Below are positions 25,101-34,100 of a stretch of DNA of 34,118 bases, piece by piece. The position numbers are program-made. Source of the DNA: an uncultured Thermococci archaeon (GTDB taxonomy: Archaea > Methanobacteriota_B > Thermococci > Thermococcales > Thermococcaceae); the NCBI GenBank assembly GCA_964615185.1, contig CAZTOS010000017.1, forward strand, positions 1-34,118, given 5' to 3'. The first letter of the stretch is position 1, and each line of letters begins with the position of its first letter.

Positions 25101-28100
25101 TCACAACCCAAAGGATCCAGCTGCCTCTCTCGGTCCAATGTTCAATCAAGTTGTTGGCACTTTATTCATGTTGATGAAAAAATATGAAGAGAAATGGAAG
25201 CCAGTTAAAAACATCAATGATGTTAAGACTTTTGGAAGCATTAAATGGCAGGAGCCAGAAGAAGTTAAAGTAACTCTCGAACTTTTAAAACAAAAATCTA
25301 AAGAGCTTTTCAAAGAAAATGAAGCAATTTTAAAGAAAGTCCTAAGCGAAAAGACGTTTACTCAAGTTACAAAAGCTCTTGAAACCTTCGAACTTGATGA
25401 TGTTCTCTGGAGTCATGTCCTCTTTGATGGAGCAGTTGCATACAAGAAAGGAATCCTCAAAAATGCTGAACCATTGATTCCGCTCTACTTTGCAAAAACT
25501 GCTGATTTCGTTGAAAAAACAAAAGAACTAACAACGGCGGAAGCAGAAAAGATCATTCAAGAGAGGGCAAAGATCTTCTTAGAGGAAAAAGACTACCTGC
25601 TTGAGAAGTGGTGATGTACTTTTCAATTAATGGCATAATCCCAGGATCACTGGAAACCGCATGAGAATACCTTAATTATCTCCCGATATTGCCTCGGTTT
25701 GATTTTTAATTCTTATTATAATTATTTCCCAATGGGAGGAAAGTCATGAAACAAAAATAAAGTCCTAGAGAAGAGCACTCAATATTTAGATGAGTCTCCA
25801 AATACTTTTTCTTAGGAATGTCTCTCTTAGCTGTGGTGGAGCTTTTAGCAGGGCTTCAACTAATTGCTTTTGAAAGTTAATCTGCTGAGGAATTCCAGTT
25901 TTTTCAAACTCTTCTTTGAAAGACTTTCCATCTTTTATGGACCTTGACAGTGCATAAGCGGAAATTACTGAAGGTCTTATCCCCTCGCCAGTTAGTGGAT
26001 ATACTGCTCCCAGCGCCTCTCCTATAACAGGATACTTAAAATTGTACATCTCCTCTTTTATGGCTCCGGCATAAATGTGTGCACCTTCTTTTCTTTCAAT
26101 TTTTGCATCTCTAAAACGCTCATCATTTTTAATGAAGGAATTAAGTCTCGCTTTTAAGTCAATATAACTTAAAAATCCTCCAATACCAACATTTGCCTTA
26201 TTTCCTCGTGGGAACACCCAAATATAGCCGACGAAATCAGTGTAAAACCAAATTTCTAAAACATCATCTTCGATTTTAGCATCTTTCAGTGTATATTGAT
26301 ACGTCAAAAACCTCCACCTGCTTTCATTGTAGAACATACTTCCTGTAGCAATTACAATAACATCTTCGTCTTTTGTTTTTATCATGGGTTCCTGCCCTTT
26401 GAATTTAATGAGCTTACCCAGTTTAACTTCTATGTCATTCACAAGCCATTTGATAAATGCAGGTTTGTTGAGTATATATCCCCGAGATGCCCTCTGATAA
26501 TTTTCACTCAACAACTCATTGTTGAGATACGTCCTTTGCCCACGTATTTCATTTAAAATGGACTCTTCTGGAATTTCAATGTATTTTTCTAAACTTTTTG
26601 GAACTGCCCAAGCACATGGCTTTGTTCCTAAAGATTTCCTCATTTCGTAACCTCTTACTTTAAATTCATCTTTAAGATAGTAAGCCAAAGACGCCCCTGC
26701 TATACCCATACCAACTATGTGAATCATTAGTATCACCCAACTTAGTTGGACAAACAACTTACTAATTAAGTTTTTGCTGAAACTAATTGTCAATGTGACA
26801 ACAAGACAATAGGAGATTTTAATCTGTTTACAATATTTGGAACAAAAAATTTAAATAAAAGATAGTAATTAACATAGAATACAAAAACTTAACGGAGGTG
26901 ATATTAGATGGAGTACGAGGCACCAAAGATTGAGAAGGTTGAAGGAAAAGTTGAGCCCTATGGGACTCTCGGGGCTGCTTGCTGTTGCATTCTTCAAGAA
27001 TGAATTTACTTTTTATTTTTTCTTTTTAAAATATTACTACAAAGGTGATGAAAATGATGAAAGAGAGAAGGTTGAGAATTGATTGGCACTTAACATACAA
27101 CTGTAATCTAAACTGTCTTCACTGTGGTGTGGTAGAGTATAGGGGTAGAGATTTCATTGAAGATCTCTACCTTAACAATAATAAAAATAGAATAATAGAC
27201 ACTCTTAGGCAACAAGACTTAAATTTGTTTATAAATCTCCTTAAGAATGATGGTAAATACTTGTTTTCAATACATTTTTCACCAAATATTGGAGAATCAA
27301 CTATCCATCCAAATTTTGTAAATATCTGGAATAATGTCTCTTCGGTTGACAGAGTATATATGCTTGCGATTACAACTAATGGGATGACACTTTATAAATA
27401 CCTACCTAGGATGAATGTAGAAAAACTTAGAACCTCAATATTTAGTTTAGATGGTGATGAGAATACACATGACAAAATAAGAGGTAATGGTACTTTTAAA
27501 AAGACATATAGATCAATTCAAAAGATCGATGAGCTAAAGCAAGAAGACAGTTCTTTCTATCTCCAGATTAACTTTGTAATTAATAAAATAAATGCTGCTT
27601 CACTTAAAGAATTACCATTGTTACTAAATGAACTGAACAGCAAAAATATTGTAATAAATGTCATACCTATAGACACAACTTTTGGGAATGCTAGAATAAA
27701 TCGGAAACTACTTGAGATTCAGATTAGTGAAATAGCAAATAGCATAAATGATGCATATAAACAACTTAAAACAATTAATGCTGAAAGAATAAAAAATGGA
27801 AAATCTATCATAAAGATTCGTTTGATGGCATTTACAAGTAAACAAGCACTCCAAATTGTTAGCAAAATTCAAAATTTAAGTTTCTCTGATTTTATAATTC
27901 CTCATAAAGGATGGAAGAAATCATGTTCGGCATATAATCAGAAGGGAATATACTTGGATCCTTACGGAAATTTGTTTCCATGTGAATCATTCACTATACC
28001 TCATGTACTTGCTAGGTTCTATTCAACGAATGGTTATATACCTATTCCAAATATTTATGATGGGTTTAGCTCTATAGAGGAGATATTACATTCACAGTTT

Positions 28101-31100: not shown

Positions 31101-34100
31101 GAGTTCCTTCAAAAGTTGAATTTTTCAAAAATTGACGAGATTGATGTTAAACCAATTTCACTAGAAGAAGCTTATTTGAAGCTCATGGGTGGTGGGTAAT
31201 GATTGAGGCTAAAAACGTTGAGAAGTTTTATGAGTTTGGTAAGGTCAAAGCTCTTAAGAGCATCAACTTAACCTTTGAGGATGGCAAGTTTTACATAGTC
31301 GCTGGAGCTTCTGGGAGCGGTAAGACTACTTTGCTCAACATTTTGACAGGCATTGACAAACCAACCAGCGGAAAGGTTACTGTGGATGGAAGTGACATCA
31401 CGGAGATGAAGGAGAAAGATCTCAGACGCTACCGTCTTGAGAACTTTGGAATAATCTTCCAGTTCTTTTACTTAGTGCCATATTTGACGGGCTTGGAAAA
31501 TGTTTTACTGCCAATGAAGTACTCCAAAAAGATCAAAAATCCAGAAGAGAGGGCATTAAAATTGCTGAAGCTTGTTAATGCAGAACACCTCAAAGATAAA
31601 ACGCCATCTCAAATGAGCGGCGGCGAAATGCAGAGGATTGCCATTGCAAGAGCCTTAGCAAACAAGCCTAAATACCTCTTTGCAGATGAACCAACCGCCA
31701 ATTTAGACTGGGAGAACAAGCTTCGTGTATGGAGGCTTCTGAGAAAAATAAACAAGGAGGAGAGCGTTACGGTTATAGCTTCAACCCACGAGAGGGAATT
31801 TTTCGAGTTTGCCGACGTTCTGATAATCCTCAAGGACGGTGAGGTTCATGAAATTAAAAGCAACCCTCAGAAAGCTTAAACGGGAGAAGAAAAAAGCGAT
31901 TGTTGTGTTTTTAGCATTTCTCTTCGTGAGCCTCGGTTTCAACTTTACCCTCTCGGGAATTGGTAGCATAAATAAGGCTGTTGAAAATTTTGCCAAGCTG
32001 GGGAATGTGGAGCTCGAAGTTGAAGGAGTCAGCGTTGAGGACTTAAGTAAATTTGGTGAGGTTGTAAACTATGTCTACTTCAATGACACAAAGGTTGAGT
32101 TTAACGGGAAGGAATACAGGGCAATGGTGGGTTACGGTGAGTTTAAGTCCTTCCATGTGAAAACACCTGAGGATGGTGCCATTGTTTTAGCATTCCCAGA
32201 AATAAAGAAGGGCAATAAAATCAAGATTAGGGGTAGGGAGTATGAAGTCAGGGCTTCGTACTACTACCTCATGGACATTCCCATCATCTTGGTGAACGAG
32301 AGGGGCCGGCATCTCTACGCCCTCATGCGTTGTAACAACACGGAGGCTTTGGCGGGCTTTTTAATGAAGAACGGGAAAGTTAGATATTTTCGGGTATACG
32401 AAGACGGCGAGATTCCATACATGGACAGCCTGAAGAACACCAAAAACTTCGCAATGAGCTTTTTCTATTTGCTCCTCGGCGCTTCTTTGGCAGTAGTAAT
32501 CCTGATCACAATAACACACGTCAAGGAGAACGTTAGGGAAATTGGGATTCTAAAAGCGCTCGGCATTCCAGATTCATTTACATCTTCCCTCTTTATTGGT
32601 GATTATCTTCTCGTTGCTTTAACTGCATATTTAGCTGGAATCCCACTTGGAATAGAGCTCGGCTATTCCTACATAGCCTCAAAGTTTCTAATACCAACAA
32701 GTCCAGATTATACTTACCCGCTAAAGTTCGACATCTTCATCCTGCTCGGCATAACTCTAATTCTTTCACTCCCCTACCTTTATGTTTCAAGGCTGAAAAC
32801 CATCGAAGCCCTGCGCTTTACGCCAAGGAAGAGCTCTTCGCTTAGGTTCTTTGCAACCTTCTTCATTATCTTTCTCGCCGCTTCTTCTGCATACTTTGGT
32901 ATCAGGAGCATTGAGAATTTGGTCAGCTTCAACATCCCCTACAACCTCATGGTTTGGGGCGAGCCTTTAAAAATCGCCCAAGTTCCCGGCGAAAAAGCTG
33001 GCTATTTAAGCGGGCAGAAAGTTGATGGAATAACCACAGAGATTTACTTTTTCGACTACAAAAGTATCTTTGAGAAAACCCTCGTCGCCGGCCGGTGGTT
33101 CAAGAAACCTGACGAGGCCGTTGTTGAGAAAGGCTTAGCTAAAAAGCTGAGCCTAAAGGTCGGTGATACAATTAAAGTTCAGCTCCTTGGGGAGTGGCAG
33201 GAGTACAAGGTTGTGGGCATAAGTAGCATGAACTTCTACGACTTCAAGGCGGTGTTTCTGCCGAAAGTTCCCTTCGTTCCCGATAAAGTTGCCTTCCTGA
33301 ATGTGAAAAATCCAGAAAAGCTGAGAGAGAAATATGAGAGGTTTGGTCTGGGTGCCGTCACAATGGAAGATTTGAAGAGGCAGACGAAAAGCAACTTAAT
33401 GCTCCTTAAGACCGCAGTCTACGGAGTAATTGGGATAATTTTCTTCATAAGCCTCTTTGCGCTCTTCGCTTTGATCTACCTTGAAATTGAGGGCAACGAG
33501 AAAGTTTATGCAACACTGAAAGCTATAGGCATTCCAAATTCTCACATTTGGAAGGAGTTCCTTAAGAATGCCCTGCCTTCGCTGATTGCTGGCTCGCTCT
33601 TAGCTCTGCCGATAAGCCTTAAAGTTGGAGAATACATCGGAAACATCGTTTTGCCAGCAACACTCAGCATAAGCGATTTGACCAAAGTAGTTCCGCTGTT
33701 GTTGGTGCTCTACTTACTCTATGGGATTTTCATAGTTTTGCTGACGAACAGAGCATTGAACAAGCTCAACGTAGTTAAAGCGTTGAGGAGTTAAGTTTTT
33801 GATCTTTGGTTTTTTCTTTATACTACAATCAATCAGTCATTCTCCTTTAGAAAGGTGTGTACTTGGATTTTATTTTTATAGTCTGCTCACTTCACTCATT
33901 TCCTTGATTCAGAAAAGAGCTTTCGAAAGCTCATCAGTTAAAAGTCTGCACCCAACTAATTAAAATGTTCAATACAAGTCTTGTTATAAACGGTAGAGTG
34001 TAAATAAGAGTTTGTAGGTTATTTTTGCTCAGATTTATCACTTTGATCAGCTCGTGTATTATTTTAGGCTGTTATCTTGTGTTTACAGGAATGCAGTAAC

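Follow-up and report, generated by a model that had tools for sequence, protein, structure and literature searches.

We propose, with a probability of roughly 55%, that an uncultured Thermococci archaeon of the Thermococcaceae carries a horizontally acquired radical SAM RiPP cluster in which a PqqD protein guides the modification of an exported, Cys-rich peptide and an ASKHA-fold protein serves as a third component. Reading the ORFs of the window (the whole stretch of DNA analysed, 34,118 nt) gave eight plus-strand genes over 26908-33794, in the order 31-aa gene, radical SAM/SPASM enzyme, stand-alone PqqD, 368-aa ASKHA-fold protein and two ABC systems; from the radical SAM gene onward, all have overlapping ends. 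The evidence supports a conserved, rare and horizontally moving RiPP-type locus. What stands of the genome-wide survey's note is thus the RiPP-type cluster with a real small precursor, whereas a reading of YEAP as a new leader type and its family-less ASKHA protein, ATPase assignment and joint modification of the cysteines do not stand as worded.

Organization and composition of the cluster

All eight genes were found again on the plus strand at the places first reported. The control elements that flank the precursor gene were read from the sequence, and the basis of each other assignment is given in brackets.

26850..26857, plus strand: TTTAAATA, candidate archaeal TATA box about 50 nt 5' of the precursor ATG, with a putative promoter function
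26894..26901, plus strand: ribosome-binding site GGAGGTGA, 6 nt 5' of the precursor ATG
26908..27003, plus strand: precursor peptide gene, 31 aa, MEYEAPKIEKVEGKVEPYGTLGAACCCILQE (ORF, conservation in related loci, motif count)
27004..27032, plus strand: T-rich tract 3' of the precursor stop, possible partial terminator
27045..28238, plus strand: radical SAM/SPASM enzyme (Pfam, alignment, model)
28219..28488, plus strand: stand-alone PqqD-type RiPP recognition element, 89 aa (Pfam PqqD, 2.7e-12; alignment A3)
28481..29587, plus strand: ASKHA-fold protein of 368 aa that forms a divergent branch of the Hydantoinase_A / 3c0b-like proteins, its phosphate-2 motif remodelled (profiles, model, alignment)
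29584..30351, plus strand: ABC-2 type permease, part of the low-GC variable cassette (Pfam/NCBIfam, GC, identity comparison)
30348..31199, plus strand: DrrA-like ABC ATPase that pairs with the ABC-2 permease (Pfam/NCBIfam, identity comparison)
31199..31879, plus strand: LolD/MacB-type ABC ATPase (Pfam/NCBIfam, identity comparison)
31839..33794, plus strand: permease of 651 aa that combines two FtsX domains with a MacB-like extracytoplasmic domain (Pfam)

Besides PqqD, the Pfam matches comprised Radical_SAM (3.4e-8), ABC2_membrane, ABC_tran (twice) and FtsX with MacB_PCD. The low GC content that had been noted for the first large genes (0.31-0.33) was confirmed at 0.307 for the radical SAM gene, 0.330 for PqqD and 0.317 for the ASKHA gene against 0.406 for the genome, in which just 0.55% of 2190 one-kb windows have a GC content of 0.33 or less.

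The precursor peptide carries a described leader motif

One or two small genes lie directly 5' of the radical SAM gene in all seven of the related loci that retain upstream DNA, and their peptides combine a common leader, Y-E-x-P-x-[I/L/V], with an invariant Pro 14-15 residues further on and a variable, Cys-rich tail. Nine precursor peptides share the Y, the E, both P residues and one C without exception, and the cores vary. The corresponding leader residues in the window are Y3-E4-x-P6-x-I8 plus the invariant P17; assuming that the leader ends at G19, the core is TLGAACCCILQE. To place the motif against background we counted M-x(0-6)-YxxPx[ILV] in ATG-started ORFs of 20-60 aa. Over the window and related loci (144.8 kb) it occurred in 14 of 1247 small ORFs, 11 of them directly 5' of a radical SAM gene (nine genes and two alternative starts); genome-wide it occurred in 49 of 19,637, and only the 31-aa precursor also had a CC tail. 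The motif is thus well in excess of background at these loci, and the evidence supports a real small gene for the 31-aa precursor.

The YEAP leader of the survey's note is not a new type, since it fits the [Y/W]xxPx[L/V/I/A/F/Y] motif that has already been described for discrete RREs. In the form [Y/W]xxPx[L/V/I] it has been published as the sequence that discrete RREs bind in the lasso, PQQ, LPP and StsC-type sactipeptide systems (PMC13381572 sections 4 and 6; PMC12710340). Core types differ by cassette (CCC, CCxC, CC or one C). The relative with a single-Cys core of which the note had warned was indeed seen (MEYEAPKIEAVENGVEPYGMDIHIHCPS), and this cassette type is a poor fit to multi-thioether chemistry.

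The radical SAM enzyme and its PqqD partner

The radical SAM enzyme, whose likely start is the ATG at 27054 (giving 394 aa), carries its CX3CX2C motif at C20/C24/C27 and auxiliary-cluster cysteines at C294, C313, C369, C372, C378 and C381; these six C-terminal cysteines are invariant, in a SPASM-like arrangement, and the enzyme lacks a built-in recognition domain. We found six relatives among 5.8 billion proteins, rather than the seven claimed earlier. The statement that none exists in the PDB by sequence holds for strong matches and has to be amended for three weak profile matches, two chains of BlsE (9.2e-5 and 9.5e-5) and SkfB (9.2e-4). The closest folds to the model (pLDDT 82) were SkfB, CteB, anSME, BlsE, DesII, SuiB and PqqE. 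Judged by these fold neighbours and by the composition of the cores, the enzyme probably makes thioether cross-links of the sactionine/ranthionine type.

Among NCBIfam models the best match was the tungsten-cofactor oxidoreductase maturase (60.3 bits), followed by the mycofactocin maturase (43.8 bits), both far under their cut-offs. For the PqqD protein it was the lasso PqqD chaperone NF033530 (1.7e-9, under its cut-off), and the named families closest to it are chaperones of lasso-type peptides. The maturase matches, the PQQ/mycofactocin architecture of a discrete PqqD beside an RRE-less SPASM enzyme and the Cys-rich tail would suit a product that is not an antimicrobial but a peptide-derived cofactor, metal binder or signal, with the cysteines as metal ligands. 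We consider such a product improbable: cofactor precursors keep their reactive residues, but the cores here differ strongly between cassettes, from CCC through CCxC and CC to one C. The cluster also contains two exporter systems and, by Pfam/NCBIfam scans, no importer or dependent oxidoreductase, and its distribution is patchy.

A divergent ASKHA-fold protein

No Pfam family matches the 368-aa protein at E <= 0.1, and in agreement with the earlier count it has eight relatives among 5.8 billion proteins. Its ASKHA fold was likewise upheld, with a model of pLDDT 79.9 and pTM 0.80 whose best PDB matches were 3cet/3c0b (E 5e-14), followed by actin, sugar kinases and dehydratase activators. The description of the protein as family-less is accurate for Pfam but overlooks a remote homology to Hydantoinase_A / TIGR03123 / 3c0b (hhalign 99.9%, E 4e-31, 319 columns); the protein is a very divergent, remote relative of these short proteins.

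Alignment of eight sequences, 32-57% identical to the window's protein, revealed 53 invariant positions; phosphate-1 residues D10/G12/K17 and adenosine-motif residues G306/G308 are invariant in the Hydantoinase_A relatives as well. The phosphate-2 motif of those relatives, D-x-G-S-T-T-T-D, has become [H/Q/A]-M-N-S-[A/S]-S-x, with both Asp replaced, and E164, R172 and R235 (A7 numbering), also invariant in the relatives, have been replaced too. These losses leave catalysis uncertain, and the designation of the protein as an ATPase is not established.

Apparent cassette exchange and damaged loci among vent archaea

The order precursor, radical SAM, PqqD, ASKHA, (ABC-2 pair), ATPase, FtsX recurred in Thermococcus, Thermococcaceae, Thermoplasmata and DHVE2 records and in metagenome contigs, so the gene order reported for Thermoplasmata, DHVE2 and Thermococcaceae MAGs was re-found. 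The hosts are vent archaea of two phyla, and the distribution is patchy (7/133 and 1/401 genomes). The FtsX permease, at E <= 1e-30, is present in only two of the 37 relatives' genomes, namely the two that carry the radical SAM gene. Three cassette types in Thermococcus are only 45-46% identical in the radical SAM enzyme, 35-51% in PqqD and 45-48% in the ASKHA protein, whereas the flanking reductase (81-96%) and the LolD-type ATPase (84-88%) are conserved. The cassettes occupy one chromosomal place, between a geranylgeranyl-reductase gene and conserved exporter genes, and in Thermococcus the precursor-radical SAM-PqqD-ASKHA block acts like a unit that can be exchanged, together with the ABC-2 permease in those loci that have one.

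Several relatives are damaged: in G004 the precursor has been replaced by a repeat, L016 has a frameshifted radical SAM gene, L023 a transposase insertion and L036 a fragmented FtsX gene, suggesting that selection on the system is weak or episodic. Such deletions, frameshifts or insertion sequences, with the strong GC outlier, could mark the cluster as a recent import, an island that is silent or in decay and has no present function. We regard this as very improbable, given that the eight ORFs are intact in the window, gene ends overlap from the radical SAM gene onward and the ribosome-binding site is kept; a second study's metagenome holds the same sequence with no differences over the precursor (contig X2, 26860-27540, 0 differences), and the enzymes are 32-63% identical across phyla with many invariant residues.

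A further damaged locus bears on the ASKHA protein. In Thermococcus G098 a deletion took the core, the radical SAM gene and most of PqqD, and the ASKHA (95% identical to the G077 type), ATPase and FtsX genes are intact, which fits a role in immunity or export. Joint action of the radical SAM enzyme and the ASKHA protein on the cysteines, as the note had it, is inference only. The radical SAM enzyme and PqqD alone might instead mature the peptide, with the ASKHA protein acting alongside the ABC systems in producer immunity or in coupling to export, perhaps by binding or inactivating peptide that re-enters the cell or by passing the product to the exporter. We judge this unlikely, although G098, which retains the ASKHA protein, LolD-type ATPase and FtsX permease in a classic orphan-immunity pattern, keeps the immunity alternative in play. 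The position of the ASKHA gene, between PqqD and the transporter genes and with overlapping ends, is constant, its phosphate-2 motif is degenerate, and a protein that co-varies with the cassette could be a peptide-specific immunity protein as readily as an enzyme. However, G098 stands alone and may have been caught in the course of decay, the protein is cytosolic by its sequence and enzyme-like in its many invariant polar residues, and the immunity proteins known from RiPP systems are mostly small membrane proteins or ABC-2 systems; the cluster already has an ABC-2 pair.

Proposed pathway

We favour a role of the ASKHA protein in peptide modification or assistance over one in immunity by roughly two to one. 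The 31-aa product would be the precursor, its Y-E-x-P-x-[I/L/V] sequence bound by the stand-alone PqqD, as the known specificity of discrete RREs suggests, and PqqD would present the Cys-rich C-terminal core to the radical SAM/SPASM enzyme, which most likely turns the CC/CCC cysteines into sactionine/ranthionine-type thioether cross-links. The ASKHA protein, which co-varies with the biosynthetic cassette, may be a cassette-specific third component that performs a nucleotide-dependent second modification or an assisting step on the same peptide. The MacB/FtsX-type system is predicted to export the product, and the ABC-2 pair may be a second exporter or provide self-protection. Any leader removal would fall to a host protease, because a Pfam scan of the cluster proteins found no leader peptidase.

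Comparison with known systems

Subtilosin-like sboA-albA-albC loci have been proposed in Thermococcus celer and T. nautili, and they share with the present cluster a radical SAM-dependent Cys peptide, an ABC component, the genus and a presumed horizontal origin; there, however, the precursor is a subtilosin A homologue and the enzyme AlbA-type, and the available part of that report mentions neither a separate PqqD nor an ASKHA protein for them (bioRxiv 10.64898/2026.07.27.741052). Lasso clusters and the linear polyphosphorylated peptides (LPPs) of Bacillota likewise pair a [Y/W]xxPx[L/V/I] leader with a discrete PqqD-type RRE, and in LPPs this pair is re-used with other enzymes (PMC13381572 section 6). 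Pfam/NCBIfam scans of our eight proteins gave no B2 protease, Asn-synthetase-like cyclase, HprK-like kinase or SpI peptidase, and the modifying enzyme is instead a radical SAM enzyme.

The PQQ (PqqA/PqqD/PqqE) and mycofactocin (MftA/MftB/MftC) systems have in common with the window a stand-alone PqqD chaperone, an RRE-less radical SAM/SPASM enzyme and a peptide of about 30 aa, and a lasso-like leader motif has been reported for PqqA (PMC13381572 section 4). In contrast, the cores here are variable and Cys-rich rather than E..Y or GVY, exporters are present, and the same scans of the cluster found no PqqB/C or MftD/E/F genes. StsB/StsC-type sactipeptide/ranthipeptide systems with a discrete RRE and SPASM thioether synthases such as CteB, SkfB and PapB resemble the cluster in a small precursor whose W/Y/LxxP-type recognition sequence a separate PqqD-like protein binds (PMC12710340), in a radical SAM enzyme that has C-terminal auxiliary-cluster cysteines and in a Cys-rich core; SkfB and CteB are the enzyme's best fold matches. 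The NCBIfam models of StsB (26.6 bits, cut-off 625) and PapB (29.4 bits, cut-off 340) are not reached, though, and the window differs in its archaeal host, in its adjacent cysteines at the extreme C-terminus, in a thioether that is here only predicted and in an extra conserved Hydantoinase_A-like protein.

That protein most resembles 3c0b/3cet (Methanococcus maripaludis Q6M145; Z 24.5 over 299 residues, rmsd 4.0; next entry Z 14.9), with a common fold along almost its full length, and shares its phosphate-1 and adenosine motifs with 3c0b, TIGR03123 and short Hydantoinase_A (PF01968) proteins, the TIGR03123 type being an NCBI 'hypoth_equivalog' model. It is only about 20% identical to them and misses the Pfam and NCBIfam cut-offs, and it differs from them in its RiPP cluster context. 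The novelty of the cluster looks to lie in this accessory ASKHA protein, unseen before in such clusters.

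Cluster layout and the precursor gene

Eight open reading frames (ORFs) on the forward strand span 26908-33794 of the window, and from the radical SAM (rSAM) gene onward the gene ends overlap. The features of this region are as follows.

About 50 nt upstream of the precursor gene, +: TTTAAATA box (read from the sequence)
6 nt upstream of the precursor gene, +: GGAGGTGA (read from the sequence)
26908-27003, +: precursor gene, 31 aa, MEYEAPKIEKVEGKVEPYGTLGAACCCILQE (ORF)
Directly 3' of the precursor gene, +: T-rich tract (read from the sequence)
After the precursor gene, +: radical SAM enzyme gene (Pfam and NCBIfam scans)
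After the rSAM gene, +: PqqD protein, 89 aa (Pfam)
After the PqqD gene, +: actin-fold (ASKHA) protein, 368 aa (ORF, without a Pfam family)
After the 368-aa gene, +: ABC-2 permease with DrrA-like ATPase (Pfam, NCBIfam)
Cluster end, +: LolD-like ATPase with 651-aa double-FtsX/MacB-type permease (Pfam, NCBIfam)

GC content is 0.307 for the rSAM gene, 0.330 for the PqqD gene and 0.317 for the 368-aa gene compared to 0.406 for the genome, where GC of 0.33 or less occurs in 0.55% of the 2190 one-kb windows. The ORF layout, the family scans and the low GC therefore bear out, in all material points, what the genome-wide survey's note had observed of the cluster (eight ORFs, family scans and GC values). 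The precursor gene (26908-27003), at a GC of 0.479 against the 0.31-0.33 of the downstream enzyme genes, is a compositional exception inside its own cassette.

We collected related loci by anchoring on relatives of the 368-aa protein, which yielded four from GTDB genomes and eight from metagenomes, plus further Thermococcus genomes; among these records L015, L018 and L036 are one locus, L014 and L022 are another, and L017 is the window itself. The rSAM gene is immediately preceded by one or two small genes in all seven loci that retain upstream DNA (the window, L014, L016, L019, L024, L034 and L036). Precursors from these loci read MVYEAPSIKKVAGGPAPTSPAGAVICCFCTK, MAYEAPSLKKASGGPAPASPTGVAVCCICNAE, MEYEAPKIEAVENGVEPYGMDIHIHCPS and MEKYEKPSLEKVDALNEPLGTWGTTCCCNLLV, and loci of the two-gene type pair M(M)EKP[K/E]YELPKVR[I/V]LSEE[E/G]VQPEGCFGGSISDPCCND with MEKSKYEPPKVISLSEDDGEPTGCLGGSITGLCCVDWWGVD or MEKSKYEPPKVISLSEDDCEPTGCPGGCINAQCCFD. 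Across nine precursor peptides a Tyr, a Glu, a Pro, a second Pro and one Cys are invariant, the second Pro following the Tyr by 14 residues (five peptides) or 15 residues (four peptides), while the tails vary freely and the variable cores are rich in Cys. The leader pattern occurs in 14 of 1247 small ATG-initiated ORFs in 144.8 kb, and 11 of these 14 are precursor genes, two alternative starts included. A whole-genome control found the leader motif in 49 of 19,637 small ORFs and, among these 49, a CC tail in the window's precursor alone. Among contigs of four DNA runs only X2, from the metagenome of a second study, spans the precursor, and it does so with zero differences. Judged by its sequence, the 31-aa gene is real and is laid out as a precursor for a ribosomally made peptide (RiPP), with a conserved leader and a variable core.

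A published leader motif and a discrete recognition protein

The YEAP leader belongs to a type already described, as it matches a published motif of discrete RiPP recognition elements (RREs). According to one study, discrete lasso RREs bind [Y/W]xxPx[L/V/I/A/F/Y], a motif shared by PQQ precursors and the recently described linear polyphosphorylated peptides (PMC13381572); a survey of RREs places FusE, McjB, PqqD and StsC, a sactipeptide RRE, together as W/Y/LxxP/L/I binders (PMC12710340). All nine precursors carry the [Y/W]xxPx[L/V/I/A/F/Y] motif. The window's PqqD protein scores 47.3 bits against the Pfam PqqD cut-off of 23.4, and in NCBIfam it comes closest to the models for lasso PqqD chaperones, under their cut-offs, such that the cluster holds both the PqqD-fold protein and the leader motif of a discrete PqqD-type RRE system. 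The rSAM enzyme starts directly with its core (CX3CX2C at residues 20-27) and so lacks a recognition domain at its N-terminus; a natural adaptor for it would be the stand-alone PqqD protein, presumably by binding the leader. The leader/RRE pair is an already known one, of lasso/PQQ type, re-used here with an rSAM enzyme.

A divergent SPASM-like radical SAM enzyme

The window derives from a Thermococcus; its rSAM enzyme is 97% identical to a protein named 'Thermococcus sp. M39' and scores 34.3 bits against the Pfam Radical_SAM cut-off of 29.5, with C20, C24 and C27 (CX3CX2C) invariant in 10 of 10 aligned sequences. SPASM auxiliary clusters follow the C-terminal motif C-x9-15-G-x4-C ... C-x2-C-x5-C-x3-C ... 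C. Invariant in the ten aligned members are C294-x13-G308-x4-C313 and C369-x2-C372-x5-C378-x2-C381, a SPASM-like arrangement in which the last Cys pair is spaced x2 instead of x3; a seventh Cys near the enzyme's end is present in some family members only. The best NCBIfam match, TIGR04317, reaches 60.3 bits against a cut-off of 380, and all 25 matches listed to the named NCBIfam rSAM RiPP maturases (MftC, PapB, StsB, GggB, DynA, the nif11 class and others) fall far short of the cut-off. A sequence profile of the enzyme gave weak matches only in the PDB. The closest PDB folds to its AlphaFold model (pLDDT 82.0, pTM 0.84) are, in order, SkfB (6.5e-11), CteB (9.8e-11), anSME, BlsE, DesII, SuiB and PqqE, and the top matches act on Cys-containing peptides. 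Given these fold neighbours, and Cys-rich cores in which Asp, Glu or Asn frequently follows the cysteines, the most economical guess is that the product would be a thioether of the sactipeptide/ranthipeptide type, in which a Cys sulfur is joined to an alpha, beta or gamma carbon, a guess that one cassette type with a single-Cys core cautions against.

The 368-aa protein is a divergent Hydantoinase_A relative

The description of the 368-aa protein as family-less stands for Pfam, in which no family matches at E <= 0.1, but fails at the level of remote relationship. TIGR03123 (NCBIfam) matches it end to end at 3.8e-6, with 26.4 bits against that curated model's cut-off of 244.1, and the family profile matches PDB 3c0b/3cet at 1.7e-10; PPR-protein matches in the same profile search were dismissed as spurious, arising from a short repeat-like match to SGIGK..L..AL. 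With the AlphaFold model (pLDDT 79.9, pTM 0.80), 3cet/3c0b are again best in Foldseek (5e-14), and VIA-align places 3c0b first at Z 24.5 (299 residues, rmsd 4.0), the next entry at Z 14.9, and acetophenone carboxylase (Z 13.8) and acetone carboxylase (Z 13.1) among the lower followers. The ESM-Atlas neighbours, 30 of 30, are Hydantoinase_A (PF01968) clusters. Against 1.84 billion representatives, the profile matches 50 proteins at E <= 1e-3, eight of them at <= 1e-30; 30 of the 50 were scanned, six of them members of the family itself, and PF01968 is at or over its cut-off in 21. Aligned by hhalign to 13 PF01968-type proteins, the family gives 99.9% probability and E 4e-31 over 319 columns. 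Collectively, these matches place the 368-aa protein within the short Hydantoinase_A / 3c0b lineage as a branch that has diverged deeply, with common ancestry at the superfamily level. A literature search on the function of TIGR03123 found nothing.

The protein retains the phosphate-1 (D10, G12, K17) and adenosine (G306, G308) motifs. The phosphate-2 motif, D-x-G-S-T-T-T-D in relatives, has become [H/Q/A]-M-N-S-[A/S]-S-x in all eight family members of alignment A5, and several residues invariant in Hydantoinase_A relatives are substituted. From these motifs nucleotide binding is plausible and ATP hydrolysis is not established; eight sequences share 53 invariant positions, often polar ones, which speaks for some kind of functional site. 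Electron activases of the BcrAD/HgdC type use conserved cysteines to ligate a bridging 4Fe-4S cluster, and we dropped this identity because a conserved Cys pair is absent, the sole invariant Cys in the eight sequences being C336, which is Ser in two wider family members. Lanthipeptide-style Ser/Thr phosphorylation by this protein was judged unlikely because one core, which reads CPGGCINAQCCFD if the P-x-G junction closes the leader, contains neither Ser nor Thr.

An exchangeable cassette within a conserved exporter frame

The 651-aa permease matches Pfam FtsX in two stretches (1.4e-21) and MacB_PCD (9.3e-8), and the best NCBIfam match of the cluster's second ATPase is LolD (206.5 bits, under the cut-off of 307.75). 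FtsX domains, a MacB-like extracytoplasmic domain and a separate LolD-like ATPase, the components of a MacB/FtsX-type exporter, are thus all present.

This is a very rare family: relatives among 5.8 billion clusters number six for the rSAM enzyme and eight for the ASKHA protein. In the window's phylum 7 of 133 genomes carry an ASKHA match, which in one case (G056) is weak and in an unrelated context; of 401 sampled genomes of the phylum of the DHVE2 genome, one carries a match, namely the DHVE2 genome itself. Strong rSAM matches were found in two of 61 relatives' genomes, and the FtsX permease in the same two of 37 searched. The weak G056 match was rejected as an ordinary Hydantoinase_A-type fragment beside an unrelated gene. 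This 3-Mb class-level relative has 12 rSAM matches in all and carries tandem rSAM/SPASM-like genes (L037, G056:C3, 6608-7663 and 7776-8840), 23-25% identical to the window's enzyme, which may form another peptide-maturation locus.

A geranylgeranyl-reductase-family gene, at 25786-26793 (-) in the window, flanks the cluster in all Thermococcus-type loci (also L019, L034, L035 and L036), which marks one conserved insertion site. By eye, the upstream neighbour is seemingly the end of an acetyltransferase gene in the Thermoplasmata and DHVE2 loci and seemingly a winged-helix regulator gene in L024. We compared the three Thermococcus cassette types (window/G004, G118 and G077), between which the rSAM enzymes are 45-46%, the PqqD proteins 35-51% and the ASKHA proteins 45-48% identical, whereas the frame genes are far closer, at 81-96% for intact copies of the reductase, 84-88% for the LolD-type ATPase and 78-82% for the intact FtsX permease copies (window, G004 and G077). 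The biosynthetic genes, with the ASKHA gene and, where present, the ABC-2 permease gene, thus form a low-GC exchangeable cassette within a conserved frame, a pattern that loci under conflict between strains typically show. The presence of three exchangeable cassettes at a single Thermococcus locus suggests that vent archaea compete with one another through peptides.

Several relatives are damaged. Genome G004 has enzymes 97-99% identical to those of the window, and the precursor and promoter region (window 26659-27005) is absent from its assembly; its contig (L038, G004:C1) starts instead with a 125-nt repeat at 1-125, so this strain is likely unable to make the peptide. Copies of the repeat end two other contigs (G004:C49:1-125 and G004:C8:3-127), one 87% identical lies at G000:C38:395-518, and the repeat is probably an insertion-sequence end. 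In G098 (L035, G098:C44, 6731-6814 and 6905-8053) a deletion fuses a precursor start (MEKPKYELLKV..., about 11 residues) to the C-terminal part of PqqD in a different frame; the rSAM gene is missing, the ASKHA, LolD-like ATPase and FtsX genes are intact, the ASKHA protein is 95% identical to the G077 type and the adjoining reductase gene is rearranged. The L016 rSAM gene is frameshifted inside the SPASM G-x4-C motif (about 6477-6511), and L036 has fragmented FtsX and geranylgeranyl-reductase genes (10845-12357 and 4756-5725), disruptions that could be real decay or errors of metagenome assembly. A DHVE2-like metagenome contig (L023) holds an inserted 525-aa transposase-like ORF (1024-2601) that separates PqqD from an ASKHA gene truncated at its N-terminus.

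A proposed role for the ASKHA protein in maturation

We favor, at roughly 2:1, a role for the ASKHA protein in peptide maturation: its gene is present in every intact cluster and belongs to the variable cassette, outside the conserved exporter frame. The opposing view, that the protein acts in immunity or export, draws on the G098 remnant, where ASKHA persists with exporter genes after loss of the rSAM gene, on the gene's position next to transporter genes and on the degenerate phosphate-2 motif. Its relatives oxoprolinase, hydantoinase and acetone carboxylase carry out ATP-dependent phosphorylation of a carbonyl oxygen, an activation that would suit peptide modification. Complex predictions of precursor, PqqD and ASKHA, with ASKHA as the scored partner and run without controls, scored 0.26, 0.37 and 0.25, where the mark is 0.32, and weigh for neither role.

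Within the maturation role, we propose, with a chance of about one in five, that this Hydantoinase_A-like protein is a new RiPP-modifying enzyme. Nucleotide-driven activation of a backbone amide, or of a C-terminal or acidic carboxylate beside the cysteines, would lead to a thiazoline made independently of YcaO, or to a thiolactone/thioester ring, for the rSAM enzyme to elaborate afterwards, and the RiPP class would be defined by the rSAM and ASKHA pair, so far in hydrothermal-vent archaea only. The cluster would gain greatly in significance should the ASKHA protein turn out to be a modifying enzyme: a catalytic ASKHA protein would bring new ATP-dependent chemistry to RiPP biosynthesis and offer the first functional handle on the uncharacterized short Hydantoinase_A / TIGR03123 proteins.

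Comparison with known systems

By its gene content the cluster reads as an RRE-dependent rSAM/SPASM RiPP cluster in logic, closest to discrete-RRE sactipeptide systems, PQQ and mycofactocin. It falls in none of the named families, because it misses every curated cut-off and lacks the defining partner genes. Pfam and NCBIfam found neither the lasso B2 transglutaminase-like protease nor the Asn-synthetase-like lasso cyclase among the eight cluster proteins, and no match to PqqB/C or MftD/E/F in the cluster. The PqqA core has a conserved Glu and Tyr and MftA ends in Gly-Val-Tyr, whereas cores of the window's family are Cys-rich and variable. For other Thermococcus species a preprint puts forward a subtilosin-like cluster, distinct from this one (bioRxiv 10.64898/2026.07.27.741052). 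Very few archaeal RiPPs are known, and our literature search found no chemically characterized RiPP from hyperthermophilic archaea and no precedent for a hydantoinase/ASKHA protein in a RiPP cluster or in peptide maturation. What is new here is the archaeal hyperthermophilic setting, the family of cores with a C-terminal CC or CCC, and a conserved Hydantoinase_A-like protein in a RiPP cluster.
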